A DNA stretch of 63,620 bases. Origin: Candidatus Kerfeldbacteria bacterium (lineage in GTDB: Bacteria; Patescibacteriota; Patescibacteriia; SBBC01; CAIJZX01). The notes below the pieces were generated by a model. That model worked only from the letters and a program-made list of their open reading frames with translations. It did no database searches and was not told the origin of the DNA. Location of the stretch: NCBI GenBank assembly GCA_903825245.1, contig CAIJZX010000032.1, positions 1-63,620 of the forward strand, read 5' to 3'. How positions within the stretch are numbered: position 1 is the stretch's first letter; each line of letters starts with the position of its first letter. Below, one piece after another: positions 2,944 to 53,064 of the stretch. The position numbers and the translations under genes were made by a program.

Positions 2944-3020
2944 GGGCGCGTAGCTCAGGTGGTTAGAGCGCGTCACTGATAATGACGAGGTCGATGGTTC
3001 GAGTCCATCCGCGCCCACCA
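2944..3020 (+). tRNA. tRNA-Ile (anticodon GAU), CCA encoded
   Basis: Cloverleaf by hand: acceptor GGGCGCG/CGCGCCC, D arm GCTC-AGGTGGTTA-GAGC, anticodon arm CGTCA-CTGATAA-TGACG, T arm GATGG-TTCGAGT-CCATC, ACCA. Confidence 0.92.
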
Positions 3021-38125: not shown

Positions 38126-38436
38126 TGGACTCTGTCGGTAAACTTCTTCAGCATACCGGGCCTGATCAAGCAACACACACGGCCGCCCTTGTTGTGGCTA
38201 CGGTAAATGCCGTACTACAGGAACGAGTGGGTGTACTGGTGCGCGACGCGCGAGCCACAAGTTTCCAACAAGGCACGATTCGGATTCATGTTTCACACGG
38301 AGCGGTGGCTGGACAACTCAACCAGCGAGCAGAGGAGATTCTAGAGCTCTGCAATAACAGCCTGGCACGTCTTGGTGCCAGCCGTTTTCGTATACAGCGC
38401 ATTCAAACCAGAGTTACGGGGCTACCGCCACAGTAA
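38125..38436 (+). CDS. DUF721 (DciA-like) protein
   Basis: About 100 aa; pattern ...A...SF..GT..I.V.....A..L......IL...N; position after dnaN. Confidence 0.5.
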   Translation: MDSVGKLLQHTGPDQATHTAALVVATVNAVLQERVGVLVRDARATSFQQGTIRIHVSHGAVAGQLNQRAEEILELCNNSLARLGASRFRIQRIQTRVTGLPPQ

Positions 38437-41296
38437 CCGTATCACTTGTGGTCACGTGACCCTTAGCGCTCTTCATGGTCGCGAGAAGCTGGTACTGGCC
38501 CGGAGCGGTTGTCGGCCAGGAAAAGGTGATTGTTTTATCGGCCGGCGAATTCACCGAGTCGAGGACGGCGGTTGTGCCGTCGGTGTTTTTTGTTAACAAC
38601 GTAACATTTGCTACGCCGTCAGGATCACTCGCAATAACCGTCACGCTTCGCGGAAAACTCGACGCGGCCAAAGATGTTTTTGGAGCGGGCGAAGAAATAT
38701 AGACCGTCGGAACCGATCCGGGCAGAACATTTATCTGTACCGAAGCAGCCGCGGTGGCGCCAGTACTGTCGGTGGCCGTAGCGCCGATGGTGTGAAAACC
38801 GCTCGTCGCGGCCGACAAATCGAGGGTGACAGAAAAAGGCGCAGACGTGCTCGTCGAAACGGGAGCATTGTCTAGGGAATATACCACGCTGGTAATAGAC
38901 GACGAACTGGAGGCCTGTACACTAACAGGTACGCTGCCGGGCGTAATCGTGGTATTTTCGGCCGGCGCAGTGAACGACACCGACACAACGGAACTTCCAG
39001 CGCGCAACGAGCAGGATTCAAATCCTGGACTTTTAGCTACGTAGCCATTCTTTGTTGCCCAGGCTTGCACGGGCGCCTCCCAGCGTGTATACATTGGGTC
39101 GGTTGTGGGGTCGGTTGGCTGTGCGCCGTTGGGATCATCTTTGTTAACGTAGTACAAAATATCGTGAACCTCTTTGACTACCACCTGTTTAATGTTTGCT
39201 GCCGGCCAGCTCGCTAAACAACTATCAGGAATTTGCTTTCCAGTTTCACTGTCGACAGAAATCGGTGTGTTGGCTGACAACTTTCCAAGAAGTACGGGTT
39301 TGGTGGACTTATTAGGGGTCGGTTTTGTAAATTTCTCAACCGGTTTTCCGGCTAACGCCCGCTCCATAAAGTTGTGCCAAATCGGTGCCGCCACCACGAC
39401 GCCGTCAGAACCAGCCTTCATGGCGGAGTTATCGTTATTGCCAACCCATACACCGGCGGCGAGCGACGGTGTAAAGCCCATTGTCCAGCCATCCCGGTCA
39501 TCGTTTGTGGTGCCTGTTTTAGCGGCTACCGGACGGTTGCTGAGGGTAAGGTTGTTCTTCGTGCCAAAGACAAAGGCGCGGGCGCTATTGTCGCTCATTA
39601 TATCTTCCAACTCATGGACGGCGTTTGCATCAACAGCGCGCGTTGGTTTGGGGGTATACTGTTCCATAAGTTTCCCGTTCTTATCCTCGACGCGTAAAAC
39701 CATGGTGACCGGATTTCGCATGCCGTCATTTGCTAGCGCTGCAAAAGCACCAACGTGCTCGGTTAACGTGACCCCTCCCCCGCCGATCGCTAGGGCGAGA
39801 CCAACCTTCGAGCTATCAATGGTGGTGTACCCAAGTTGGCTGGCCATAGTTAAAACATTTGGGATGCCAGCAAGGTAGAGGGTTTTTACGGCGGGGATAT
39901 TCAACGATCCAGCGAGTGTTTGCCGCATCGTTAGTGGACCATGCTCTTTGAGGTCGTAATTATTTGGAATAAAATCCTTTCCTGAACCATCCGGTCCGAA
40001 GTTTGTTTTCAAATCAAACAACAGGGTGTCGGGAGAATATCCTTTGGTAAATGCGGTTAAGTAGACGATAGGCTTGAACGATGATCCGGGGTTTCTTATG
40101 GCTGTGGCTACATTGAAATTCCCATCATGTGCCGTGTCAAAGAAATCAACCGATCCAACCATGGCCAGCACCTCGCCCGTTTTTGGGTCGCTCGCCACCA
40201 AAGCCGCATTAGAGGCCTTATACTTTACGTTTTTTGCTGCACCCGCCACCACCTCTTCCTCGGCAATTTTTTGTAGGGCCGGATCGAGCGTTGTTACTAC
40301 TCGGAGACCGCCGCCCTCGACAAGCGCCTCACCATATTTTTGCACCAACTGGTCACGCACTGTAAAAACAAAATGGGGCGCCGTTATCGAATCACGAACA
40401 GGGCTTACTTGAGCAAGAACATCAATCGCCTTGGCGGCATCGGCCTGCGTCTGGGAAATATACCCATTTTTTACCATCTCACTGAGCACGAGGTGTTGTC
40501 GATCGAGCAAAGCCTGGCGGTGGATACCATTCGGGGAATAGTATGTTGGCGCCTGGACAACGGCCGCCATGACCGCGCTTTCAGCTAGATCAAGATCTTT
40601 AGCGTGCTTTCCAAAATACGCCTCGGACGCCGCCTCAATACCGTAGTTGCTGGCACCATAAGGAATATCATTAAAGTACATCTGAAGAATTTGATCTTTT
40701 GAGAAGCGTTGCTCGATTTGGTATGACAGAATAATTTCTTTCACTTTGCGAATGTAGGATTTGTCGGTTGTTAGGATCGAGTTTTTTACGAGCTGTTGGG
40801 TGAGTGTTGATCCGCCCTGAGCCTTGCTTCCCGACAACACATCAACCACGACCGCGCGCATAGTGCCCATGAGTGAAATCCCGCTGTGTTTGTAAAAACC
40901 CTTGTCTTCAATACTGATGGTTGCCTGTTTAATGTAGGTTGAAATATTGCTTAAACTAACCACCGTTCGTCGTTGGTCGCCGTGAATCTCATATAACAAC
41001 GTTGAGCCATCACGGGCGTAAATTTCTGTGCTTTGGGCCACGACACGGTTGTTGATTTTATTCGGGTCGGGTAAGTCCTGGGACACCCAAGCGACCAAGG
41101 CCACCGCCGAAACGGCACCAAGGAGTATCACGGTAACACCAATCTGAAGAACGATTCGCCGCCAACGGTGTTGGCGGGGTGGTCGGCCGGGGAATTGGCG
41201 GCGCGGAGTGGCTGGTTCGGGGGTGACCCGCCGGGTGGTGTCTGTAGCCGGATGACGGCGTTTCGGGGTAATAATCGACATAGGGTATGCTGTCAT
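38414..41296 (-). CDS. Class A penicillin-binding protein (GT51 transglycosylase plus transpeptidase) with C-terminal Ig-like repeats
   Basis: EDKGFYKHSG, GGSTLTQQ, RKVKE (GT51); SSFKP, SLN, KTGTT (transpeptidase). Confidence 0.92.
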   Translation of the reverse strand: MTAYPMSIITPKRRHPATDTTRRVTPEPATPRRQFPGRPPRQHRWRRIVLQIGVTVILLGAVSAVALVAWVSQDLPDPNKINNRVVAQSTEIYARDGSTLLYEIHGDQRRTVVSLSNISTYIKQATISIEDKGFYKHSGISLMGTMRAVVVDVLSGSKAQGGSTLTQQLVKNSILTTDKSYIRKVKEIILSYQIEQRFSKDQILQMYFNDIPYGASNYGIEAASEAYFGKHAKDLDLAESAVMAAVVQAPTYYSPNGIHRQALLDRQHLVLSEMVKNGYISQTQADAAKAIDVLAQVSPVRDSITAPHFVFTVRDQLVQKYGEALVEGGGLRVVTTLDPALQKIAEEEVVAGAAKNVKYKASNAALVASDPKTGEVLAMVGSVDFFDTAHDGNFNVATAIRNPGSSFKPIVYLTAFTKGYSPDTLLFDLKTNFGPDGSGKDFIPNNYDLKEHGPLTMRQTLAGSLNIPAVKTLYLAGIPNVLTMASQLGYTTIDSSKVGLALAIGGGGVTLTEHVGAFAALANDGMRNPVTMVLRVEDKNGKLMEQYTPKPTRAVDANAVHELEDIMSDNSARAFVFGTKNNLTLSNRPVAAKTGTTNDDRDGWTMGFTPSLAAGVWVGNNDNSAMKAGSDGVVVAAPIWHNFMERALAGKPVEKFTKPTPNKSTKPVLLGKLSANTPISVDSETGKQIPDSCLASWPAANIKQVVVKEVHDILYYVNKDDPNGAQPTDPTTDPMYTRWEAPVQAWATKNGYVAKSPGFESCSLRAGSSVVSVSFTAPAENTTITPGSVPVSVQASSSSSITSVVYSLDNAPVSTSTSAPFSVTLDLSAATSGFHTIGATATDSTGATAAASVQINVLPGSVPTVYISSPAPKTSLAASSFPRSVTVIASDPDGVANVTLLTKNTDGTTAVLDSVNSPADKTITFSWPTTAPGQYQLLATMKSAKGHVTTSDTVTVAVAP

Positions 41297-42535: not shown

Positions 42536-43508
42536 ACGCCGGTCGATAGAACAGTGCAGCCTCTTCCGGCGGCACCGTGTTTACGACGAGTCGTGACCCA
42601 AGCTCAACGCCAGCCCAGACATCTCGACGTGGGGCAACCCGAAGGTACATGTGTTCGCCGCGGTCGCCGACGACCTGGTGCAGGTAGTAGTTGTATGGTA
42701 AGTGTAACTCGCCCACCTTCATCAGGATTGTTTTGAGGTAGTGCGCCATTTCCTTAATTTCGCCGTCTGAGAGAAGTCCAATATTGTCGACACGTCGCCA
42801 GGGCATAATCCATGCTTCGTAGTTGTATAGCGAGGCGTAGGGCGCTAGGGCGCACACGTGCTTGCCGGACGCGATCCATCGCGGACCATTTTCTTCGCCG
42901 ATAAGTAAGTCGCTGTAATAATCGCGATTGTGTTGGATACGATACTCTTCAGCGCGTTCCCGACGGGTAATAATGTGCGGCGGAACGTATTGTGAGGCAA
43001 AAATCTGGGAGTGGGCGTGATTAATCGAGGCGCCGGCACTTCCACCGTTGTTCTTAAAAATTAAGATGTAGCGGATTTTTTTATCGCGCTGGAGTTGACG
43101 CATGCGCTTGCCGTAGACACGAAGCAGGTCGGCAATGTGTTCTTCCGGCAGGGTCGAAAGCTCAACGCCATACTTTGGTGTTTCCACTACCACCTCTTGG
43201 TAGCCATATGCCTTAGGATTTTCCGGAGTAACGACTGGAAAAATATTTTTTATCACCTTGATGCGCCATGATTTTTGGCCACCGACCGTCAAGAGCGCTT
43301 TTACGCCACGCAGATTTTCTGTAGAGAAAACATCCTTTGCTGGGGTGGCGCTGGATGCGGTGGCCTCAAAATTTGGGTTCACCGTATCGTGCGGACGCCG
43401 ATTACGACCAGGTGCAATAATTACCTGCCGGTCGTGAACATAGTCTTCACGGATTTCAGCTTGCGGCGTTGGTGGAACCTCAAGTTTCGATGTAGGATTT
43501 TCTGGCAT
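42513..43508 (-). CDS. GalT-family (HIT superfamily) hexose-1-phosphate nucleotidyltransferase-like protein
   Basis: HxHxQ motif INHAHSQIF; two half-barrel repeats; no N-terminal Cys zinc motif. Confidence 0.65.
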   Translation of the reverse strand: MPENPTSKLEVPPTPQAEIREDYVHDRQVIIAPGRNRRPHDTVNPNFEATASSATPAKDVFSTENLRGVKALLTVGGQKSWRIKVIKNIFPVVTPENPKAYGYQEVVVETPKYGVELSTLPEEHIADLLRVYGKRMRQLQRDKKIRYILIFKNNGGSAGASINHAHSQIFASQYVPPHIITRRERAEEYRIQHNRDYYSDLLIGEENGPRWIASGKHVCALAPYASLYNYEAWIMPWRRVDNIGLLSDGEIKEMAHYLKTILMKVGELHLPYNYYLHQVVGDRGEHMYLRVAPRRDVWAGVELGSRLVVNTVPPEEAALFYRPAFTNEPKV

Positions 43509-44934
43509 ACGTATAGAGGTTACTATAGTCGCTGGCTGAACGCGCCCACGAGAAGTCTTCGGTCATATCTCGGGTACGCACAGCTTGTAGTTTATCGTGT
43601 TCGTGATAGAGACGCAATGCGGCAACAATAGTTGTTCGTAGTGCGCCGGCAATCGGGTCAGAAAAAACAAAACCGGTTCCGTCCGGATGAAGCGATGTGT
43701 CGCGGACAGTATCATGTAGCCCGCCCGTGTCGCGGACGATTGGAATGGCACCATAGCGCATAGCAATCATCTGCCCCAAGCCACACGGCTCGAATCGCGA
43801 TGGCATCAGAAAAAAATCACTGGCGGCATAAATCCGCTGAGCGAGCGCCGCATCAAACCGTAAAATTGTCTTACAAGCCGACGGAAATGCCTTGGTGGCG
43901 GAGACAACCAACTCTTCGACCTCAGGTACGCCGCTACCAAGGATGACCACTTGGCCGCCAGCGTTAACGATATCGCCAATAACACTAGCCACCAAGTCGA
44001 CGCCCTTTTGCGAGGTGAGTCGACCAACAAGCCCAAAGAGCGGCCCATCGCTATCTGGTAATCCAAGTTCTTTTCGAAGTGCGCGCTTGTTGATGAGTTT
44101 GCCAACGACGGCGGTCGAGGCAGAATATTGGGCTGGAATTCGCGAGTCCGTTTCCGGATTAAATACTGCCACGTCAATTCCATTCACAATCCCCCGCATA
44201 CCGTCCGGCCGGGACTGAATATCGCGCTCAAGTCCGGCGCCGTATAGCGGAGACAGCACCTCAATCGCGTATTGCGGACTAACGGTAGTGACGACGGTGG
44301 CGGTACGGATACCCGACTGGAGGGCGTTGAGGTTATTATCAACATCGCGAAACTCAAGCCCCGGAACCTCGTGGCCGGTAAGCCCGAGCCAAGAAAAAAC
44401 CTCTTCCGCCCGCCAGCGTCCCTGGCTTTCCATGTTGTGGATCGTGAGCATGGTCGGAAGGCGCACCTTTTTGACCGCCAGGAGCGCTGGTAACAAACCG
44501 GTGTGCCAATCATGGCAATGAATAACATTAATCGGCCAATTCAATAACGTGGCGCAGTGCGCGGCCGCCCACGAAAAAAACGTGTATCGCTCTTCAGCAA
44601 GCCGAATACCTTCGGGACCATTGTGTTCATAATAAATCGCGTCGCCCTCAAACAGTGTTGGCGTTTCCAGGAGGTATAATGTCGTCGCGGTTGGTAGTAA
44701 TGTCGATTCAATAACTTTCACCGGCACTTGTTGGCCGCGCCAAAGCACAACCGTTTCGACAACAATACGTTTTTCCGGTGCCCGGTCGGCGGTGATGACA
44801 CTGTATTTTGGCAACATGACGCGAACATCGTGACCTAATGCCGATAATGCGGACGGCAAAGCGCCAACAACGTCGGCCAAGCCACCGACCTTTATCAGTG
44901 GCGCCGCCTCAGATGCGACGAAGAGAATATTCAT
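43480..44934 (-). CDS. glgA: Glycogen/starch synthase (GT5), copy 1
   Basis: MNILFVASEAAPLIKVGGLADVV, HCHDWHT, PSRFEPCGL. Confidence 0.92.
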   Translation of the reverse strand: MNILFVASEAAPLIKVGGLADVVGALPSALSALGHDVRVMLPKYSVITADRAPEKRIVVETVVLWRGQQVPVKVIESTLLPTATTLYLLETPTLFEGDAIYYEHNGPEGIRLAEERYTFFSWAAAHCATLLNWPINVIHCHDWHTGLLPALLAVKKVRLPTMLTIHNMESQGRWRAEEVFSWLGLTGHEVPGLEFRDVDNNLNALQSGIRTATVVTTVSPQYAIEVLSPLYGAGLERDIQSRPDGMRGIVNGIDVAVFNPETDSRIPAQYSASTAVVGKLINKRALRKELGLPDSDGPLFGLVGRLTSQKGVDLVASVIGDIVNAGGQVVILGSGVPEVEELVVSATKAFPSACKTILRFDAALAQRIYAASDFFLMPSRFEPCGLGQMIAMRYGAIPIVRDTGGLHDTVRDTSLHPDGTGFVFSDPIAGALRTTIVAALRLYHEHDKLQAVRTRDMTEDFSWARSASDYSNLYTYARKSYIET

Positions 44935-45977
44935 GATTGTGTGAGGAGCTTAACAAGCACGTCAATTCGCTTGGTAAGAAGCTGACAGTAGGCTCGACCA
45001 GGATTATTGTCTTCGCCAAGCGTCTGAAGCGTGATGGAGAGAATATCAATTGCTGAACGCAACTCAAAAATCGGTACATCAGCTGCGGTTTTTCGCCAAG
45101 ACACCGCACCAATACTTTTTGCATAGCCCTGTAAAAAACGCTCGCGCCAATGCTGTACCCGCGATTCAGCCACACGGCCGTGGCACATGACTGCCAGGTG
45201 GGTGACAAACGTTCCAAGGTCAAACGCGGTTGGACCGACGCCGCTCAACGTAAAATCAATAATCCCAATAGCCGACCCAAGAATAATATTACTAGCCTGG
45301 AAGTCTTTATGGGTGAGCCCTGGCTGACGGCTCCACGCCAGTCTTTCATGGGTTTGTAAGACAGTAATTACTCGAGTCGCCCAAGTGCGGCGCGATGGTG
45401 ATCGACGCACAATGGCGGCGTGGCAGGTGCGTAGAAAATCTACCTCTTGGCGCCAATGTAATTGACGTAGCCCACGTGCTGGGGTGCAATGAAACGCAGC
45501 GAGTGAGCCGCCGATTGACTCGGCAATGGCCGGCCAACGCGACGACGTGAAGGCGAGTTGACGTAATGTTGACCCACTCGTTTCTTCATAGAGGATATAC
45601 CCGGGCGGTGTCAGATAATCGAGCGGACGCGGCGAACGAAAAACGTGTTTCGTTTGTGCGAGACGACGAAAGATGGCCGACGTTTGCTGATCGACAGTGT
45701 TTCCGCGAACATGGTGGACACGTTTTCCGTTGGGATACTGAACGGTGACATCAAATCGCGTTAGGTAGCTCGACGTGGAGAGCGTTGGTCGGTGTGTATA
45801 TCGGCAGCTAACAACACGCATTGCCCCGGGGAAGAACGCTTGTTCCCGGCGTGAAAAAAACCCTCGCATCGCTTCCGGCGAAGCCAGCGAAGTAAAAAAG
45901 CGTTGATGTGGCGCTGGCTGTAAGCCGGTGCTACGCGCTGGAGCCGGTGATGTCTGCTTTCTTAGCATTGAGTTCAA
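44931..45977 (-). CDS. Protein-kinase-like fold phosphotransferase (APH/maltokinase-like)
   Basis: Brenner motif LTHKDFQASNIIL, downstream IDF; start uncertain because it overlaps the GH57 3' end. Confidence 0.55.
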   Translation of the reverse strand: MNSMLRKQTSPAPARSTGLQPAPHQRFFTSLASPEAMRGFFSRREQAFFPGAMRVVSCRYTHRPTLSTSSYLTRFDVTVQYPNGKRVHHVRGNTVDQQTSAIFRRLAQTKHVFRSPRPLDYLTPPGYILYEETSGSTLRQLAFTSSRWPAIAESIGGSLAAFHCTPARGLRQLHWRQEVDFLRTCHAAIVRRSPSRRTWATRVITVLQTHERLAWSRQPGLTHKDFQASNIILGSAIGIIDFTLSGVGPTAFDLGTFVTHLAVMCHGRVAESRVQHWRERFLQGYAKSIGAVSWRKTAADVPIFELRSAIDILSITLQTLGEDNNPGRAYCQLLTKRIDVLVKLLTQS

Positions 45978-47319
45978 TAACGCGATCGCGAAGTTGGGCT
46001 GCCCGTTCGTATTCTTTGTGGCTCGCCGAGGCTAGCATCTGCTTTTCCAAATTATTCACCATATTTTCGAACTCTTCGAGCGGAATGTGCGGCATTTCTT
46101 TGGTGATGCGCTGAGTAACATCTTCATCCGAGGCCTTAATGCGTTCGGCAATTTTATCGTTGCGTTGCCAATCGAAGGCAGTGAAGACGATGCCGCGATA
46201 CAGCTCTTCGGCGCGCGTCTTTTCTGTACCTGTAGCTTGCGGGTTGTCGAGGACTACGTCACGAAGCTCCTTGGCGCCCATTTCCATCATTTCGATGCTC
46301 CACCATGGACTAGCCGACGCCCACCAGTACTGATCGGAGTGGACGGCGCGATCGAGTGCATGGCGAACTGTTTTCCAGGCCGGATTTTTTTCATCGAGCT
46401 TCTTGAAACTGTCGATTGCCAAGTACGTGAGTTCCCACTGCATCTTGTGTATTTCATTTGTTTCGTCCTGCCAGCGCGAGAACGGCGTATTTTGCTCTAA
46501 ATCTTTTTTCATCAATGCCCAACTCGACGGCAACGGTTCAACCTCGGCGCGCTTGGTGACAACTTTTCGCAATTCCGATAACGTGACCGACTTCAATTCC
46601 GGCACGTTATACATTTCAAACAGCAAGGCATCGAGTCCCGGGCGGTGGTGGCCGAACGTTTCACCGTCCATCGCGGTCAGCAGGTATTCATCGGAGTTCA
46701 CGCGATCGCCGAGGAGTTTTAATAACATGCCGGCGGAAAAAACGCTGACGCCGACCTCGGCTGAGAGAATACGGAAACTTGCATCGCGTTCGCGGAAGAA
46801 AATCGAGAAGTCGTCGCTGTTTTTCAGAGTGTAAATCGTGTCGCGGCGGATATCGTGCATCTTGCCACTGAAAGCTAACTCATCGATGATTAACCAATCG
46901 AAACCCATGGAGCGCACGACATCGGCAACTTTTCGATTGTAGCCCATTTCCGGCGGGAAGAAACCTTTCGGGTTGTAGGCATCGCCGAAGTAATGGCGAT
47001 TTGTTTCTGTATTGAGCTCGATTTGGCGGCGAATTTCTGATTCGGGCATCAGCGGCAGGAACGGATGGTATTTTGCGCTGGCGGTGAACTCGATTTGTCC
47101 GCGTTCGGCGAGCGTTCGCAGACCGTCGATAACATCATGCGCGCCGTATTTATCGAAAAACTCAACTAAGACGGCATTAATGTTCAGTGTGGCCCTTGCT
47201 TGTGGATTTTCTAGCCAACCTTTCACCAGGACGCGGTAACACTCGTTGGTAATTTTCTTCACCCAGTATTCTTTTTGCGTCGGCGGCTGGTAGAAGTGGA
47301 GGAAATTTGCCCAAAGCAT
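45931..47319 (-). CDS. GH57-family glycoside hydrolase-like protein with C-terminal UVR motif, copy a
   Basis: MLWANFLHFYQPP..., ...DGETFGHH...; C-terminus LEKQMLASASHKEYERAAQLRDRVIEL. Confidence 0.8.
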   Translation of the reverse strand: MLWANFLHFYQPPTQKEYWVKKITNECYRVLVKGWLENPQARATLNINAVLVEFFDKYGAHDVIDGLRTLAERGQIEFTASAKYHPFLPLMPESEIRRQIELNTETNRHYFGDAYNPKGFFPPEMGYNRKVADVVRSMGFDWLIIDELAFSGKMHDIRRDTIYTLKNSDDFSIFFRERDASFRILSAEVGVSVFSAGMLLKLLGDRVNSDEYLLTAMDGETFGHHRPGLDALLFEMYNVPELKSVTLSELRKVVTKRAEVEPLPSSWALMKKDLEQNTPFSRWQDETNEIHKMQWELTYLAIDSFKKLDEKNPAWKTVRHALDRAVHSDQYWWASASPWWSIEMMEMGAKELRDVVLDNPQATGTEKTRAEELYRGIVFTAFDWQRNDKIAERIKASDEDVTQRITKEMPHIPLEEFENMVNNLEKQMLASASHKEYERAAQLRDRVIELNAKKADITGSSA

Positions 47320-47473
47320 ACGATATTTAGTGCATCAATAAGTGGTTGCAGTATACCGCACTTTTGGTTGTTTTTCCATGTTTTGTATTGATGGTCTTGC
47401 GACAATAAATACAGCACAGATATGGATTAGCGGAGGTTAGTCAGGGTTGTTGGTTAAGTAAAACACCCATCAT

Positions 47474-47504
47474 AAATAAAAAGACTACCAATGCATTGGT
47501 AGTC
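47474..47504 (-). terminator. Rho-independent terminator ending the rSAM operon
   Basis: Perfect 22-nt palindrome GACTACCAATGCATTGGTAGTC (47483-47504), followed on the minus strand by TTTTTATTT. Confidence 0.8.
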
Positions 47505-47533
47505 ATAGTACAGAGCGGTCGTATATTTAGTGG

Positions 47534-48820
47534 TTAGAGGACCAGGCTGTTGTTCAAAGAAATGATGAAAAAATTTCTTGGAACAAGCATGGTCATGACT
47601 CGATGAAATTCAGCATCATCAGTCGTCGTGCAAAATTGTTCGGCCAGGCGGTTTAACGACATCGGTGCCGCTGTTCTGGTGGCAACGATGAAATCCCGTA
47701 GCGCCTGGTTGATGTGCAAAATGTCGCGTGAGCGTCCCGATGTTACCAACCATCCATCGCCATCCGGGCGTTCGAGATACTTGCGACTAGGTCGAACGAT
47801 GGTCGTCGGGTAAAGATCGGGAGGAGGCGCCAACGTCAACACTGGTTCACTTGAGATCATCAATTCCTCAAGCGCTCCAGCTTCACGCACAGCGGCATCG
47901 ATCGGACATCCACCACTTGTGGCAACATCGCAGGCCAAACAACTCCGGTGTGTGTTACCAACAGCGGATCGCCAATCCTGCATACGTTCCCAAATAGAAC
48001 CGAGGCTCTCATTCAGGACGTTTCCATAAACACGAGGATTGTGTCCGCAAGGACGCACGTCACCGTTAACCGCGATCGTTCCATTACGTTTGCCGGCATT
48101 GCAGGCCCGAAAAACAAACGGCAGTCGCAGATCAAAGGCTCGTTGCGGAATGACTCGCCGTGGCAAAGCCTCCATCACATCTACGTCGAGACCAAGCGTT
48201 TCATGCGCCCACACGAGATCGGACAACACCTGCCGTGTTTCCGCCAAAGATAACGGCAGTTCAAACTGTGGCGCACGCGCATTGAGACTCACCGGCGTTG
48301 CGGCAAAACGTCGAACACCGAGCTCAGCCATACGAATAGCCGTAGCCCGAACATCATCACGATTCAACTGGCTAACAACCATGTTGACGGTGTGATTGAC
48401 GCCCGTGGAGACGACCTGCCGTAGATTCGTTTCGAATCGGTCGTAGTTCCCGCCACCAGTGATATGCCGGTACTGCTCCGGTGTACTCGATGGACAGGAA
48501 ATCAGGTAGTGATCAACCCGAAGTTCGGACAACACCTCATCTGTCAATGGCGCCAGACAGGTATTTAGCGAGAGGATGGTACCGTGATTGGCCAAATACT
48601 TCGACAACTCAATGACCAAACGACGACGGGTCAGTGGTTCACCTCCAGTGAACGTGACGAAGAAAATACGATTCCGAACGATGTGTTCGGCGATGCGAAA
48701 CATCTCGTCGTCCGACAAGTCAGCTGTCCGTTGAGGGATAGCGGCACTGAGTAAGTAGCAGTGCAGGCAACGGTACGGACAATGTTCGGTCAACTCCCAC
48801 TGCAGGACTGCGGGGATCAT
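47534..48820 (-). CDS. Radical SAM enzyme with SPASM/twitch-type auxiliary Cys cluster and PqqD-like (RRE-like) C-terminal extension
   Basis: CPYRCLHC (Cx3Cx2C) near the N-terminus; CX12GX4C then CLACDVATSGGC; C-terminal ~100 aa ...WLVTSGRSRDILHINQALRDFIVATRTAAPMSLNRLAEQF...FHRVMTMLVPRNFFI. Confidence 0.8.
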   Translation of the reverse strand: MIPAVLQWELTEHCPYRCLHCYLLSAAIPQRTADLSDDEMFRIAEHIVRNRIFFVTFTGGEPLTRRRLVIELSKYLANHGTILSLNTCLAPLTDEVLSELRVDHYLISCPSSTPEQYRHITGGGNYDRFETNLRQVVSTGVNHTVNMVVSQLNRDDVRATAIRMAELGVRRFAATPVSLNARAPQFELPLSLAETRQVLSDLVWAHETLGLDVDVMEALPRRVIPQRAFDLRLPFVFRACNAGKRNGTIAVNGDVRPCGHNPRVYGNVLNESLGSIWERMQDWRSAVGNTHRSCLACDVATSGGCPIDAAVREAGALEELMISSEPVLTLAPPPDLYPTTIVRPSRKYLERPDGDGWLVTSGRSRDILHINQALRDFIVATRTAAPMSLNRLAEQFCTTTDDAEFHRVMTMLVPRNFFIISLNNSLVL

Positions 48821-48841
48821 GACTCACTCCTTGTGGTTGGA

Positions 48842-49489
48842 TTACTCGGTTATAGATTGTAAAGATCGTTCGATCGTTTGTTTGATGTCATGTGTATTAC
48901 GATACTCCTTTAGGATCGTAGCTCGAAGCTCTTGATGTTGCGGATAACCAATATCTTGAATCCCGGGCATCAGATCACTAAATTCTTCATTGAGTAGCAC
49001 TGTTAGGGCTTCCTTCATATCATTCGAAACTTTTGCTCCGTGTTTGACCTGGATCTCATCCCTAAAAAACGCATAATAGTACCAATGCCATAATTCATGC
49101 ATCAGTGTTTTCGTAACAGCCTTCAGGTTTGTATGAATAAAGAAATATCCACGCTCATAGTTATATGAGCATCGATCATGAACCGTTAAGTATACCGTCA
49201 ACCGATCCATTGGTAATGGTTTACCAAATATTGCATTTGCCCGGGTAAAGTATTTCGTTTCAATGGCGATCCAGTTTGCCTCAATGTCAGACAATACTTT
49301 ATTCGGATCGATGTTGTGTTCCCGAAGATACCATTCGGAAAAGGCAATGGCGTTTGGGCGAGTCAGTTCAGCGTAGTGCTCAAAAAAAAGAACTTGGCGC
49401 GGACTTGCTTGGGCATGATTTTTTGAACCAAAAGCCGCGCGGAAGTTTTCATATTCGTAAGATGGGTCGTAGCGAAAGTTGATGGTCAT
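48842..49489 (-). CDS. HExxH (HELWH) protein, putative metallopeptidase-like partner
   Basis: TLMHELWHWYYY motif; 21 nt upstream of the rSAM start; visibly AT-richer than its neighbours. Confidence 0.55.
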   Translation of the reverse strand: MTINFRYDPSYEYENFRAAFGSKNHAQASPRQVLFFEHYAELTRPNAIAFSEWYLREHNIDPNKVLSDIEANWIAIETKYFTRANAIFGKPLPMDRLTVYLTVHDRCSYNYERGYFFIHTNLKAVTKTLMHELWHWYYYAFFRDEIQVKHGAKVSNDMKEALTVLLNEEFSDLMPGIQDIGYPQHQELRATILKEYRNTHDIKQTIERSLQSITE

Positions 49490-49541
49490 GATAAAAAGTG
49501 GGAGAGTGGATCAGGTTCTCCCGTGTGTGATGTACAGACTT

Positions 49542-49673
49542 CTAGTAGTTGTCAGTATTCCCGTCGTCACAGCCGCCATCGCAATCGCAGTTCTCGGTCT
49601 GAGCCGAGACCAGCTTCATGCCAGCGAACGGTGAAGGACGGGAATCCTCCAACATCACATTGTCGTGGTCCAT
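49542..49673 (-). CDS. 43-aa Cys/Asp-rich peptide, candidate RiPP precursor (MDHDNVMLEDSRPSPFAGMKLVSAQTENCDCDGGCDDGNTDNY)
   Basis: Hand translation; GGGAGG RBS 5 nt upstream of ATG; first gene of the operon, 52 nt upstream of the HExxH gene; below the ORF-track cutoff. Confidence 0.6.
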   Translation of the reverse strand: MDHDNVMLEDSRPSPFAGMKLVSAQTENCDCDGGCDDGNTDNY

Positions 49674-49775
49674 GTGGACCTCCCGAGAAGATAGCTCATT
49701 ATCATCGCGCGGTTGCGCAACAGGCCTGACAGATCCAAGTCAGAAACCGAATGTTAATGAGCTTGTCTGCACAGG

Positions 49776-49804
49776 ACACTAACGGCAAAGACTAAATATG
49801 TCAA
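49776..49804 (-). promoter_or_regulatory. Promoter candidate TTGACA-N17-TAGTGT for the peptide operon
   Basis: Minus-strand TTGACA at 49804-49799 and TAGTGT at 49781-49776. Confidence 0.45.
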
Positions 49805-49822
49805 GCGCCGTCGCGACGGCGC
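49805..49822 (-). terminator. Perfect 18-nt GC palindrome GCGCCGTCGCGACGGCGC downstream of GH57 copy b
   Basis: Read directly; lies immediately upstream of the -35 element. Confidence 0.5.
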
Positions 49823-49891
49823 ACATGAGCCTTAATCCAACACAGCCCCTTGTCGAGAGCAAGCATGTTTTTGTTACAACCCCCTGTTACG

Positions 49892-51112
49892 TTACACCCG
49901 CTTCCCACCCATAAACCGGATGTCGCCGGTTTGTTGTAAATACGTTCCTTGCCGGTGTTTCGCTAAGCCGGTTTTTTCCCAAAGCTCGGTTGTGGTGGCG
50001 ACTTGTTGCATCAATCGTTCAGCGGCATTCATGGTTTTTGTCGGCACACGCGTCAGTGTCGCGAGTACGTCGACCAAGCGCTGTGTTTCGCGGATGACAA
50101 TCGTCATGTCCCACCACGGACTAGCCGATGCCCACCAGTATTTATCTGATGTTAAAGCCATATCGAGCAAGCGGCGAGCAACTTCAAACGTCGGATCGCT
50201 TTCGGCGCTTCGCACAGCGGTGATAACGAGGTGCGTGAGTTGCCACTGGAGCTTGTGAATCGGATTATTCGGATGGTTCCACAGGCCGAACGGAATATTG
50301 GCGGTAATTTCTTGTGGTTGCGACGACCAACTGCCGTCGTGAAGCTCAATTACCGATTCTGTTGATTGTCGGTCGCGGTATTCCGAAACGGTTTCGGTTG
50401 CAATCTCCGGCCAGGTAACGAGTATCTCCCAGAGACGATCAACGCCGGCGCGATGGTGGCCGAGATTCTCTCCGTCCATCGCCGTTACTAGGCCAGCCGT
50501 GGTTCGTATATCTCCCTGGAGCGCGGCGACAGACTTTTCCGGCTGATCAATAGTCGCTGAAAATGACAAAAAGTCGCTCAAGAAGCGATTGCGAAACACG
50601 ACGCCAAGTCCGCCACCGGTCATATAGCGCCGATCAAAAAGCGTGGTGCCAAGTGGTTGACCAGAACACACCTCATCAATAATTATCCATTCGTAACCAC
50701 GGTTGATCAGTATCGGCTCCAGCGACGCACTGTAGGCCATTTCTGGTGCGTAGAAGCCCTTGGGGTGGAAGGCTGAGCCGAATGTCTCTCGACAGACAAT
50801 TTCTTGTAGTTCGATTTGGCGGACAATTTCTTCGGCCGGCAATAGCGGTAAAATTGGATGATATTTTGCGCTGCCAACCAACTCGATTTGTCCGCGCTCG
50901 GCGAGGCGGCGAATGCTCTGCAGAACATCGGTTAATCCAAGCGCGACCAACTGATCAATGAGCGAGCCGGTAATATTGAGCGTAATTTTAATTTCCGGAT
51001 GTTGCTGTAAAATAGCTACCATCGGTTGGTAGGCTTCGGCCGTGGCGCGACGAACAATCGCCTCATCCCACGCCGGCGGTTGGTAGATATGAAAAAAATT
51101 ACTCCAGTGCAT
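49892..51112 (-). CDS. GH57-family glycoside hydrolase-like protein, copy b (no UVR tail)
   Basis: MHWSNFFHIYQPP..., ...DGENLGHH...; roughly 45% identical by eye to copy a over the N-terminal 150 aa. Confidence 0.8.
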   Translation of the reverse strand: MHWSNFFHIYQPPAWDEAIVRRATAEAYQPMVAILQQHPEIKITLNITGSLIDQLVALGLTDVLQSIRRLAERGQIELVGSAKYHPILPLLPAEEIVRQIELQEIVCRETFGSAFHPKGFYAPEMAYSASLEPILINRGYEWIIIDEVCSGQPLGTTLFDRRYMTGGGLGVVFRNRFLSDFLSFSATIDQPEKSVAALQGDIRTTAGLVTAMDGENLGHHRAGVDRLWEILVTWPEIATETVSEYRDRQSTESVIELHDGSWSSQPQEITANIPFGLWNHPNNPIHKLQWQLTHLVITAVRSAESDPTFEVARRLLDMALTSDKYWWASASPWWDMTIVIRETQRLVDVLATLTRVPTKTMNAAERLMQQVATTTELWEKTGLAKHRQGTYLQQTGDIRFMGGKRV

Positions 51113-52571
51113 GGTGCGCCGCAATCGTTCGCTTGTAGAGGTCGACGTACTGTTTGGCCGGCAAACCCCAGGAGAATGATTGGCGCATCGCCTGCCAGGT
51201 GAGGTGTTCCCAAACGCGAGGGTATTTATAGGTTTCGATGGCGCGGGTCATGGCCATAATCAGATCCGGGCCGGTGTAGTTGTAGAGGACGAAGCCGGTG
51301 CCGACGCCGGTGCGCGGATCGAAGTCGGTAATGGTATCAGCTAAACCGCCGGTGCGATGGACGATCGGAATGGAACCGTAGCGCAAACTGATGAGCTGAG
51401 AAATACCGCACGGTTCATAGCGACTCGGCATCAAGAACATATCGGAAGCGGCGTAGATGCGGGATCCGACGGCTTCGGAGAACTCCAGATGCACCGCCAC
51501 TTGGTGCGGATACTTCTTGGCCATTTGCCGGAAGAAATTCACGTAGCCGCGATCACCGCCACCGACGACGACTAGTTGCACCTGCTGGCGCATGAGTACC
51601 GGAAAAATTTCCATGATGAGGTCGAATCCTTTTTGTTCAGTCAATCGGTGAACCATTCCAATCAAGGGTACGTCTTTTCGTTCCGGTAGATGGAATTCTT
51701 TTTGTAACAGGCGTTTATTTTCAGCTTTTTTATCAAGCGAGTTCCAATCGTAATGAATTTTTAGGTGCTGATCGAAACTCGGGTTGAAAATCGTATAGTC
51801 GATGCCGTTAATAATGCCGAAAACACGATCTTGTCGCCGGCGTAGAACACCATCGAGACCTTCACCGAATTTTTTGGTCATAATTTCCTCGGCATAGCGA
51901 ACACTAACGGCGCTGATCGCGTCGGCGTTTTTAATAGCGCGCAACGCAAAGTTGGTGGTGCGGATTGTGGCGGTGTCAACCGGTGGCAAACCCCGACCTT
52001 GGTCGCGTTTTTCGGGCGGCAAGTTAAACCACATGCCTTGCATTTGGTAGAGCAGGTTGTGAATGGTGAAAACACTAACCGTATCTCGCCACAGAGGGTT
52101 TTTCCGATATTCACAATTGAGGTAGTTCGGAATAAGTCCAGTGTGCCAGTCATGACAATGAAGAACATCCGGAATATGCCCGAGAAATTCGAAGAGCAAA
52201 AACACCGCTCGATCAAATACTTGGAAGCGCAGGTTGTCGTCAGGATAACCAAACGAGCGGTCGCGCTCGGTAAAAAGTTCGTCCTGAGCTAAAAAGTACA
52301 CCGGCACCTTACTGTGCTCAGAGAGTTCACCACGATAAAAACGAATCGGGTATTCCTTTTTACCCAAGGTTACAACGCTATCGCCGAGATGTGTCACCGG
52401 CAGTGATTGGGCGGCAATTTGTTTGTAGTACGGCGTGACGACGGAAACTTCGTGCCCGAGACCCTTCACGTGCTTCGGCAGGGCGTTCGCGACGTCGGCT
52501 AAGCCGCCGGTTTTGCTGAACGGGCTGACCTCCCAGGAAACGATGGCGATGTGGAGTGGTCGATCGGACAT
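51099..52571 (-). CDS. glgA: Glycogen/starch synthase (GT5), copy 2
   Basis: LHIAIVSWEVSPFSKTGGLADVANALP, HCHDWHT, PSRYEPCGI; start at ATG 52571. Confidence 0.9.
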   Translation of the reverse strand: MSDRPLHIAIVSWEVSPFSKTGGLADVANALPKHVKGLGHEVSVVTPYYKQIAAQSLPVTHLGDSVVTLGKKEYPIRFYRGELSEHSKVPVYFLAQDELFTERDRSFGYPDDNLRFQVFDRAVFLLFEFLGHIPDVLHCHDWHTGLIPNYLNCEYRKNPLWRDTVSVFTIHNLLYQMQGMWFNLPPEKRDQGRGLPPVDTATIRTTNFALRAIKNADAISAVSVRYAEEIMTKKFGEGLDGVLRRRQDRVFGIINGIDYTIFNPSFDQHLKIHYDWNSLDKKAENKRLLQKEFHLPERKDVPLIGMVHRLTEQKGFDLIMEIFPVLMRQQVQLVVVGGGDRGYVNFFRQMAKKYPHQVAVHLEFSEAVGSRIYAASDMFLMPSRYEPCGISQLISLRYGSIPIVHRTGGLADTITDFDPRTGVGTGFVLYNYTGPDLIMAMTRAIETYKYPRVWEHLTWQAMRQSFSWGLPAKQYVDLYKRTIAAHHALE

Positions 52572-52575
52572 AGAC

Positions 52576-53064
52576 TTAGTGTAGCACTTTCGAAGCCGAT
52601 CCGCAGAGGGCAATGGCGATCGCATCAACCGTATCGTCGTGTTTTGGAAGTCGCGTGAGATTGAGAAGTAACTGAATCATCCGTCCCATCTGTCGTTTAT
52701 CGGCTCGACCATCGCCGGTGACTGACGACTTGACGGAGGTCGGCGTGTATTCATCAACCGGTAATCCGTGCTCGGCTGCGGCCAGGATGAGTACGCCGCG
52801 TGCGTGAGCAACAGCGATGCCGGTGGTGACGTTCTTCGTGAAGAAAAGTTTTTCCACAGCCATACGATCCGGACGATATTCGCGAATAATGTCGGTGACG
52901 CGCTCGTGCAACGTTTGTAATCGGTGCTCGAGTAATTGGCCGGCGGTCGTTTCAACACACCCACACCCAACTAACGCCGCTGTGCCGCTGCGATTTTCAA
53001 TAATCGCCCAACCCAACCGGGCTAAGCCAGGATCGATGCCAAGGACTCGGATATTATGCTTCAT
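52576..53064 (-). CDS. ruvC: Crossover junction endodeoxyribonuclease RuvC
   Basis: VLGIDPGLARLGWAII..., EKLFF, D..DAIAIA. Confidence 0.9.
   Translation of the reverse strand: MKHNIRVLGIDPGLARLGWAIIENRSGTAALVGCGCVETTAGQLLEHRLQTLHERVTDIIREYRPDRMAVEKLFFTKNVTTGIAVAHARGVLILAAAEHGLPVDEYTPTSVKSSVTGDGRADKRQMGRMIQLLLNLTRLPKHDDTVDAIAIALCGSASKVLH

Follow-up and report, generated by a model that had tools for sequence, protein, structure and literature searches.

We found that a 43-codon open reading frame on the minus strand of a Candidatus Kerfeldbacteria contig (GenBank assembly GCA_903825245.1, contig CAIJZX010000032.1, positions 1 to 63,620; this whole stretch of 63,620 nucleotides is hereafter the window) very probably encodes the RiPP precursor of a radical-SAM/SPASM enzyme encoded nearby. 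The small ORF, an F-x-x-M leader motif, a Cys-Asp core, and a position beside the enzyme gene are conserved in relatives down to about 30% enzyme identity, under protein-level selection. The most complete explanation of these data, and probably the right one, is a three-gene RiPP cassette of a family without a curated model, for which we propose a mechanism below. The precursor family is found mainly in the ultra-small CPR/Patescibacteria, and also in some Bacteroidota.

An initial annotation made from the sequence had reported a hidden minus-strand ORF for a 43-aa peptide at 49542..49673, and the frame is present as described, with a GGGAGG ribosome-binding site. It is the longest in its reading frame and comprises 43 codons for MDHDNVMLEDSRPSPFAGMKLVSAQTENCDCDGGCDDGNTDNY, followed by a stop. 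It is hidden in a relative sense only, as the exact 43-aa product was already called as a protein on three contigs from the same organism in a metagenomic protein collection. The N-terminal part is indeed free of Cys, over 28 residues rather than about 27, and the last 15 residues hold the three Cys that had been counted, with five Asp in place of six and two Asn in place of three (the third is reached only by counting N28). All three Cys have Asp as the next residue, and the peptide ends in Asn-Tyr. The precursor gene and the features around it are as follows.

49542..49673, minus strand: precursor peptide gene, recognized by translation, orthologous small ORFs, motif specificity, and codon-level constraint.
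49590..49673, minus strand: leader, residues 1-28, a Cys-free stretch.
49545..49589, minus strand: core, residues 29-43, CDCDGGCDDGNTDNY, from the translation.
49617..49628, minus strand: codons for F16-A-G-M19, which form the F-x-x-M motif of the family leader; the first Cys is the tenth residue past M19.
49679..49684, minus strand: Shine-Dalgarno GGGAGG with a 5-nt spacer to the ATG, read from the sequence.
49776..49804, minus strand: possible promoter, recognized by eye within the 218-nt intergenic region.
49490..49522, minus strand: weak hairpin from folding (49500..49522), with a 6-bp stem GGGAGA/UCUCCC and an 11-nt loop, followed by ACUUUUUAUC (49490..49499).
48842..49489, minus strand: 215-aa HExxH protein, a candidate zinc metallopeptidase with HELWH at residues 131-135.
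47534..48820, minus strand: 428-aa radical-SAM/SPASM enzyme; the CxxxCxxC motif spans residues 14-21, the SPASM region about 222-305, and the C-terminal domain about 340-420.
47475..47504, minus strand: terminator-like hairpin (47504..47483) with a 9-bp stem and a T-run, found by a terminator scan and beginning 30 nt past the stop of the radical-SAM gene.

On the minus strand, the order is thus peptide gene, 215-aa ORF, radical-SAM gene, and terminator-like hairpin. The radical-SAM gene had been described as adjacent to the peptide gene, and this does not hold, given that the 215-aa gene sits between them. The hairpin at 47475..47504 is likely the end of the three-gene unit. Orthologous peptide genes have AAAGGAGG-type ribosome-binding sites at the same position as in the window. 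The possible promoter was read by eye as a perfect TTGACA (49799..49804), a 17-nt spacer, and a weak -10 element TAGTGT (49776..49781); a consensus promoter scan reported no promoter upstream of the peptide gene, the TTGACA at 49799..49804 included. The HExxH gene, the F-x-x-M motif, the hairpin past the peptide gene, and the absence of two conserved auxiliary-cluster Cys from the enzyme were not part of the initial annotation. Two paralogous sets of glycogen genes flank the cassette, one with glgA and a GH57 gene and the other with a GH57 gene, a kinase gene, and glgA.

Because searches with the single sequence returned only the 43-aa peptide itself and no homologue, both in a word-indexed search of 5.8 billion proteins and in an exhaustive phmmer search of 1.84 billion representatives, we traced relatives through the neighborhood of the enzyme. 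The radical-SAM enzyme has about 55 relatives at 24-71% identity; several of them belong to Patescibacteria, Komeilibacteria and Falkowbacteria included, and some to Bacteroidota. Among 45 loci encoding such relatives, fetched from genome and metagenome collections and in some cases representing the same contig from two collections, 38 had a same-strand small ORF adjoining the radical-SAM gene with a strong Shine-Dalgarno sequence, the F-x-x-M motif, and a Cys-Asp-rich C-terminus. The conserved core was also present in loci L024 and L026, there without a canonical start codon, giving 38-40 of 45 in total. Of the five loci without a small ORF, three are truncated by a contig end on the side in question. 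A regular expression for the motif matched a single one of the 756 small ORFs in the window, namely the 43-codon ORF itself. In the related loci (314 kb with 2701 small ORFs) it had 36 matches, all of them on the same strand as the radical-SAM gene and at most 1.3 kb from it. Since the matches occur only beside the enzyme gene, a chance ORF is excluded.

The codons of these small genes also bear the mark of selection on the protein. Among the peptide orthologues, pS was 0.66-0.9, at or near saturation, versus a pN of about 0.25, and pairs that were not saturated gave dN/dS values of 0.06-0.5. Pooled over 69 pairs in an alignment guided by the sense-frame translation, pN/pS came to 0.39 for the sense frame; one antisense frame gave 0.58, and the four others 1.0-1.3. 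As pN/pS was lowest in the sense frame of this sense-guided alignment, the plus-strand ORF at 49523..49729 appears to be an antisense shadow of the peptide gene, in agreement with how it had been interpreted at the outset. Both the reading frame and the Cys positions, whose lack of conservation in homologous loci had been named as grounds for abandoning the ORF, proved to be conserved. The comparative evidence therefore strongly supports the earlier leader-plus-core reading, that is, a genuine gene whose partner is the radical-SAM/SPASM enzyme encoded nearby.

Within the peptide family, lengths range from 32 to 57 aa, and 28 of 31 nonredundant peptides contain the F-x-x-M leader motif, with the first Cys mostly 10-12 residues past the motif Met. 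In one alignment (A2), M19 is invariant and F16 nearly so, and in distant clades the leader motif often takes the form F-x-F-x-x-M-x-[VIL]. Core composition is dominated by Asp (28%), Cys (20%), and Gly (16%), and Asp directly follows 88 of the 116 Cys (76%), against its 28% frequency in the core. The unit conserved in the family is the Cys-Asp dipeptide, and tandem runs of the form (CD)3-5 are frequent. Specifically, peptides of the window's clade have (CD)2-5, then [AGD]G[DN][IT]D[ND]Y and a stop, such that all ten end in D-[ND]-Y with a terminal Tyr. This C-terminal Tyr is absent in more distant clades, where the peptides end in ...GCDCDSPN, ...GGGCDNN, or CDRD. Scanned against Pfam and NCBIfam, 23 peptides of the family gave noise only, and we found no description of the peptide family in the literature open without subscription.

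The 428-aa enzyme matched the Pfam families Radical_SAM (2.5e-17) and SPASM (1e-7), both above gathering scores. In NCBIfam, none of the best 25 of its 62 matches reached the cutoff of the respective model: the leading models were TIGR04053 (the top match, 76 versus 395 bits), GeoRSP, AhbD, NirJ2, and MftC, with 59-76 bits versus cutoffs of 265-500, and neither the SCIFF maturase model nor the QhpD model was among these best 25. A Foldseek search with the AlphaFold2 model (pLDDT 82) ranked SkfB first (E = 7e-15), then SuiB and CteB (structure 5why, E = 6.5e-12), and thereafter viperin, DesII, MoaA, PqqE, and anSME. When the family profile was compared with solved structures, SkfB was again best (1.1e-12), SkfB, MoaA, and PqqE being about equal by sequence, while the match to CteB (8.5e-7) covered the radical-SAM core only. 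PqqE was the only full-length sequence match among PDB structures.

The domain layout of the enzyme is distinctive. As CxxxCxxC begins at residue 14, the protein has no N-terminal leader-binding domain such as thioether-forming maturases typically have. At the other end, a domain of about 90 aa (residues ~340-420) is confidently modelled as three strands followed by three helices, and this succession is the topology of PqqD-like RREs. Searches for an RRE match to this domain in Pfam (13 domain sequences), with a PDB profile, and by hhalign to the N-terminal extension of a neighboring radical-SAM protein returned none, at a low power illustrated by the probe N-termini, which missed PqqD too. 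Eleven Cys columns are conserved across 50 family members. Of the seven SPASM-region Cys, the window's enzyme has five. P0003, its nearest relative at 71% identity, lacks the same two, whereas all 48 other members keep the full seven. One of the two is replaced by R222, and the other, the third Cys of CxxCx5Cx3C, is lost through a 2-residue deletion. The dN/dS between these two enzymes was 0.08, which indicates that the Cys-depleted variant is maintained and not decaying. Because the two auxiliary-cluster Cys are missing, the activity of the window's enzyme may differ from that of the rest of the family.

The gene between precursor and enzyme encodes a protein that had no match in Pfam, NCBIfam, or the sequences of the PDB, remote profile searches included. 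Across 50 homologues, H131, E132, H135, D179, G181, Y182, P183, Q184, and H185 are invariant, and E160, located 25 residues downstream of HExxH, is nearly so. Its AlphaFold2 model had a pLDDT of 96.9 and gave no significant Foldseek match (best E = 0.23, TM about 0.33); the top hits were nearly all zinc metallopeptidases, with weak fold hits (E 0.2-2) to vibriolysin, ArdC, M1 aminopeptidases, EryP, and LasB, and to the M4 family. The HExxH family has more than 353 members, mostly hypothetical proteins from CPR, and only part of it is tied to the cassette, since distant members and also the closest one (66% identical, in L049) stand alone without a radical-SAM gene. The GC content of the HExxH gene in the window is 0.41, versus 0.53-0.55 for the peptide and radical-SAM genes.

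Moreover, the partner gene of each locus is one of three unrelated peptidase-like types. The 215-aa HExxH type is present in the window, in three loci with the same order of peptide gene, HExxH gene, and radical-SAM gene (L004, L005, and L050), and in five with the HExxH gene located past the peptide gene (L006, L007, L010, L041, and L043). L050, which has exactly the gene order of the window, is from a closer relative, and its peptide ends in ...SAFAGMCLLADSGSCDCDCDDGNIDNY. Ten loci have a Transglut_core protein with Cys, His, and Asp (E = 1e-15), and 17 have a Peptidase_MA_2-like protein with HEYxH...EGLA (E = 2.7e-6, below the Pfam cutoff). In other clades, the peptide gene is placed either upstream of the peptidase gene and the radical-SAM gene or downstream of the latter, and one locus (L038) has two precursors in tandem. 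The presence of three unrelated peptidase-like partners at the same place suggests that their role is leader removal. Precedents for such a role are the transglutaminase-like B proteins of lasso peptides for the Transglut_core partners, where the likeness is functional only, and the M1-type peptidase EryP of class III lanthipeptides for the HExxH protein, to which it is linked by a weak fold hit only. In the related loci compared, no transporter, exporter, or immunity gene was conserved near the cassette, and the cassette loci had no MftB- or PqqD-like partner or chaperone gene.

The weak hairpin at 49500..49522 is located in the 52-nt spacer past the peptide stop. In the window, its fold alone was not significant (z = -0.16 and z = -0.85 in two computations). 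At the same position past the peptide gene, a stable hairpin (z < -2, median -3.9) occurs in 25 of 29 related loci, and 16 of the 29 have a terminator-like structure with a U-tail. A hairpin after the precursor gene is a classic means of keeping the precursor transcript in excess over the enzyme transcript, and we consider the structure at 49490..49522 a candidate attenuating terminator.

Taken as a whole, the cassette is built as a radical-SAM RiPP system would be, and its closest likeness is to the ranthipeptide systems, namely PapB, which makes freyrasin from the precursor PapA, and CteB, which acts on SCIFF to make thermocellin. Shared with these are a small precursor, a Cys-free leader, a Cys-rich core with acidic acceptors, and a single radical-SAM/SPASM maturase, and CteB is among the top structural matches. 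Unlike them, the window's enzyme has no domain before CxxxCxxC, has an extra domain at its C-terminus, reaches no curated cutoff, and is without two auxiliary-cluster Cys; an N-terminal RRE on the maturase is what we take to define the ranthipeptide family. Additionally, the repeat is the Cys-Asp dipeptide rather than Cys-X3-Asp, and the F-x-x-M leader is unrelated to those of PapA and SCIFF. Judged by sequence, the enzyme falls outside the maturase families for ranthipeptides, sactipeptides, mycofactocin, and PQQ.

Other systems offer partial parallels. QhpD, a radical-SAM/SPASM enzyme, forms several Cys-to-Asp/Glu thioethers in QhpC, a small polypeptide that stays in the machinery of its producer as the gamma subunit of quinohemoprotein amine dehydrogenase. 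In contrast, there are no amine dehydrogenase genes near the cassette of the window, and the substrate is a free peptide of 32-57 aa with a leader motif. SkfB, the maturase of the sporulation killing factor and the best structural and profile match to the enzyme, forms thioethers as a RiPP maturase and has a reduced domain of the Twitch type, for a single auxiliary cluster, which the Cys-depleted SPASM region of the window's enzyme may parallel. SkfB has an N-terminal leader-binding domain and forms one Cys-to-Met alpha-carbon link; it differs from the window's enzyme in sequence (18% identity), and the other members of the enzyme's own family keep the seven SPASM-region Cys. Mycofactocin (MftA/MftC) and PQQ (PqqA/PqqE) likewise combine a tiny precursor with a radical-SAM/SPASM enzyme and a dedicated peptidase and have no exporter, and MftA also has a C-terminal Tyr, a likeness limited to the window's clade. 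They differ from the present cassette in model scores, which are far below cutoffs, in their separate MftB or PqqD gene, and in the Tyr, which is not family-wide here; furthermore, MftA-type peptides end in Val-Tyr, versus Asn-Tyr in the window's precursor.

In the mechanism that we propose, the maturase would bind the leader around F-x-x-M, possibly via its C-terminal three-strand/three-helix domain, and 5'-deoxyadenosyl radical chemistry would join the sulfur of every Cys to a carbon atom in an Asp located downstream. The attachment point would most likely be the carbon beside the side-chain carboxylate, as with PapB and QhpD. The leader would be removed by the HExxH protein, and elsewhere by the transglutaminase-like or Peptidase_MA-like protein, and the hairpin past the precursor gene would raise the ratio of precursor to enzyme transcripts. 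The product would be a small, multiply cross-linked, and very acidic peptide. PapB links Cys to Asp or Glu and accepts Cys-Xn-Asp with n = 0-6, which makes the Cys-Asp thioether the best-precedented chemistry; we adopt it by analogy and tentatively, as an assignment about as likely to be wrong as right. The initial annotation had likewise related the Cys and the acidic or amide residues of the core to thioethers of the ranthipeptide or sactipeptide type, a reading that may prove correct.

The precursor reading could hold and the chemistry still differ. Links of the sactipeptide type, from the Cys sulfur to an alpha-carbon, would be in keeping with the top rank of SkfB, which forms alpha-thioethers, in both the structural and the profile comparisons, and with weak NCBIfam matches to the sactipeptide maturases StsB (8e-14) and AlbA (2.5e-7), but the latter are far under their curated cutoffs (51 versus 625 bits and 29.5 versus 850 bits, respectively). 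Furthermore, Asp follows Cys almost universally (76%), which points to selection for a carboxylate side chain, as chemistry of the PapB type requires, and we know of no such acceptor preference for alpha-carbon links, so that this variant appears quite improbable. A reaction that forms no thioether at all is somewhat less so, and still unlikely. Under it, the enzyme would make a PqqE- or MftC-like carbon-carbon link, decarboxylate oxidatively at the C-terminal Tyr, epimerize residues, or oxidize or heterocyclize Cys, and the product would act within the cell as a redox cofactor, or bind metals through thiolates and carboxylates, rather than be secreted as a cross-linked peptide. The full-length match to PqqE, unique among solved structures, the MftC, AhbD, and NirJ2 models among the best NCBIfam matches, the D-[ND]-Y end of all ten peptides in the window's clade, and a cassette without a conserved exporter all agree with such chemistry, and metals bind well to the unmodified side chains of Cys and Asp. 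Set against it are scores of 59 versus 265 bits for MftC and 48 versus 381 bits for PqqE, and a cassette lacking any MftB- or PqqD-like partner. In addition, distant clades have CDSPN, CDNN, or CDRD ends without the Tyr, while Cys-Asp is universal, and because of these Tyr-less clades, Tyr chemistry cannot be the common reaction of the family.

A small ORF with no role as a product, arising by chance or translated as a regulatory leader that senses Cys or Asp supply through attenuation, is the least credible account, and we give it hardly any weight. The ORF is short and of low complexity, and the hairpin and U-run that come after it are attenuator-like, as a regulatory leader would have them. 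Nevertheless, the radical-SAM gene precedes the peptide gene in several clades, an order incompatible with a 5' leader role, the downstream genes are not for Cys or Asp biosynthesis, and attenuation does not explain F-x-x-M or the amino-acid-level constraint. The chance variant is excluded by the specificity of the motif regular expression. Gene order and selection together led us to reject both the chance ORF and the regulatory leader, leaving the precursor of a radical-SAM maturase as the reading on which we rely.

No characterized RiPP class is known to use the Cys-Asp dipeptide as its unit, and for this reason the cassette may yield a new product scaffold. With more doubt than we attach to the thioether itself, we suggest that neighboring Cys-to-Asp links could form small seven-membered rings, or that the product could be a thiolate/carboxylate-rich metal-binding peptide or redox cofactor kept inside genome-reduced CPR cells, made by an enzyme that reads the leader via its C-terminal domain and that, in the window's lineage, is a variant with two fewer auxiliary-cluster Cys. 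A cofactor or metal-binding product of intracellular use would fit the lack of an exporter in the cassette.

CPR/Patescibacteria have usually been reported as nearly without biosynthetic gene clusters, and one survey found none in its Patescibacteria genomes (PMC11613949). The loci described herein establish a conserved three-gene peptide-modification cassette in CPR/Patescibacteria and some Bacteroidota, with precursors that are missed by homology searches and have no curated model. What is new is an uncurated family with a Cys-Asp dipeptide core, a different domain layout of the enzyme, and interchangeable peptidases, in a group thought to be poor in such clusters. The F-x-x-M leader and Cys-Asp core motif can be used to annotate the family, and the cassette provides a defined, testable enzyme-substrate pair. 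The natural radical-SAM variant with a reduced auxiliary-cluster site could show the role of the auxiliary clusters in peptide cross-linking, and tandem Cys-Asp linking, if true, would extend the enzyme toolbox for compact thioether-stapled peptides.

Two paralogous glycogen-metabolism gene sets, spanning window positions 43480 to 52628 on the minus strand, flank the cassette, and may represent a duplication with the cassette located at its junction. The genes were, in the upstream and then the downstream set:

51099 to 52628, minus strand, glgA (upstream set)
49892 to 51124, minus strand, GH57 (upstream set)
45931 to 47319, minus strand, GH57 with a UVR motif (downstream set)
44931 to 45977, minus strand, APH-type kinase (downstream set)
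43480 to 44934, minus strand, glgA (downstream set)

Within the cassette, the HExxH gene (48842 to 49489) had a GC content of 0.41 (GC3 0.41), clearly below that of the peptide gene (0.55), the radical-SAM gene (0.53), and the entire window (0.50). Moreover, two independent short contigs from the same organism ended about 10 nt past the peptide stop codon, with the HExxH gene beginning just beyond. The low GC and the contig ends may together reflect strain variation or recent acquisition of this gene. In the radical-SAM/SPASM enzyme (47534 to 48820), residue C109, the cysteine of an 'SCP' motif within the radical-SAM core, was retained in 48 of the 50 family members compared and is not among the three SAM-cluster ligands.

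The conserved precursor core, ...NCDADGSEGSGCDCDSPN, was also found 5′ of the peptidase gene in two loci encoding relatives of this enzyme, L024 (about 200 to 275) and L026 (1 to 75), where the reading frame has neither an ATG, GTG, or TTG start nor an F-x-x-M leader. Decay of the precursor could account for this arrangement, as could a frameshift or use of an unusual start codon.

Elsewhere in the window, the following features were identified:

1 to 132, final 132 nt of the 16S rRNA
2944 to 3020, tRNA-Ile(GAT)
38414 to 41296, minus strand, class A penicillin-binding protein of 960 aa

The 16S rRNA and tRNA were separated by about 2.8 kb and no 23S rRNA match reached the gathering score across the entire 63.6 kb, such that the rRNA operon looks to be unlinked or interrupted. 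At its C-terminus, the penicillin-binding protein was extended by a long stretch rich in Ser, Thr, and Ala, which resembles repeated Ig-like modules.

Among the related loci, a different, second radical-SAM/SPASM enzyme, extended at its N-terminus by about 100 aa, adjoined the cassette in L002/L016 and L008, which may be small RiPP islands. Additionally, the window's clade included four loci with genes for HisKA_7TM seven-transmembrane sensor histidine kinases no more than a few kb from the cassette. The positions of these neighbors were:

L002/L016, 3614 to 4963, opposite strand, second radical-SAM/SPASM gene
L008, 7578 to 8948, second radical-SAM/SPASM gene
L003, 2816 to 5549, HisKA_7TM kinase gene
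L004, 4244 to 4915, HisKA_7TM kinase gene
L005, 9519 to 11711, HisKA_7TM kinase gene
L050, 2524 to 4605, HisKA_7TM kinase gene

The recurrence of the kinases may reflect the mere commonness of such genes in CPR genomes, or may hint at a signaling role for the peptide.
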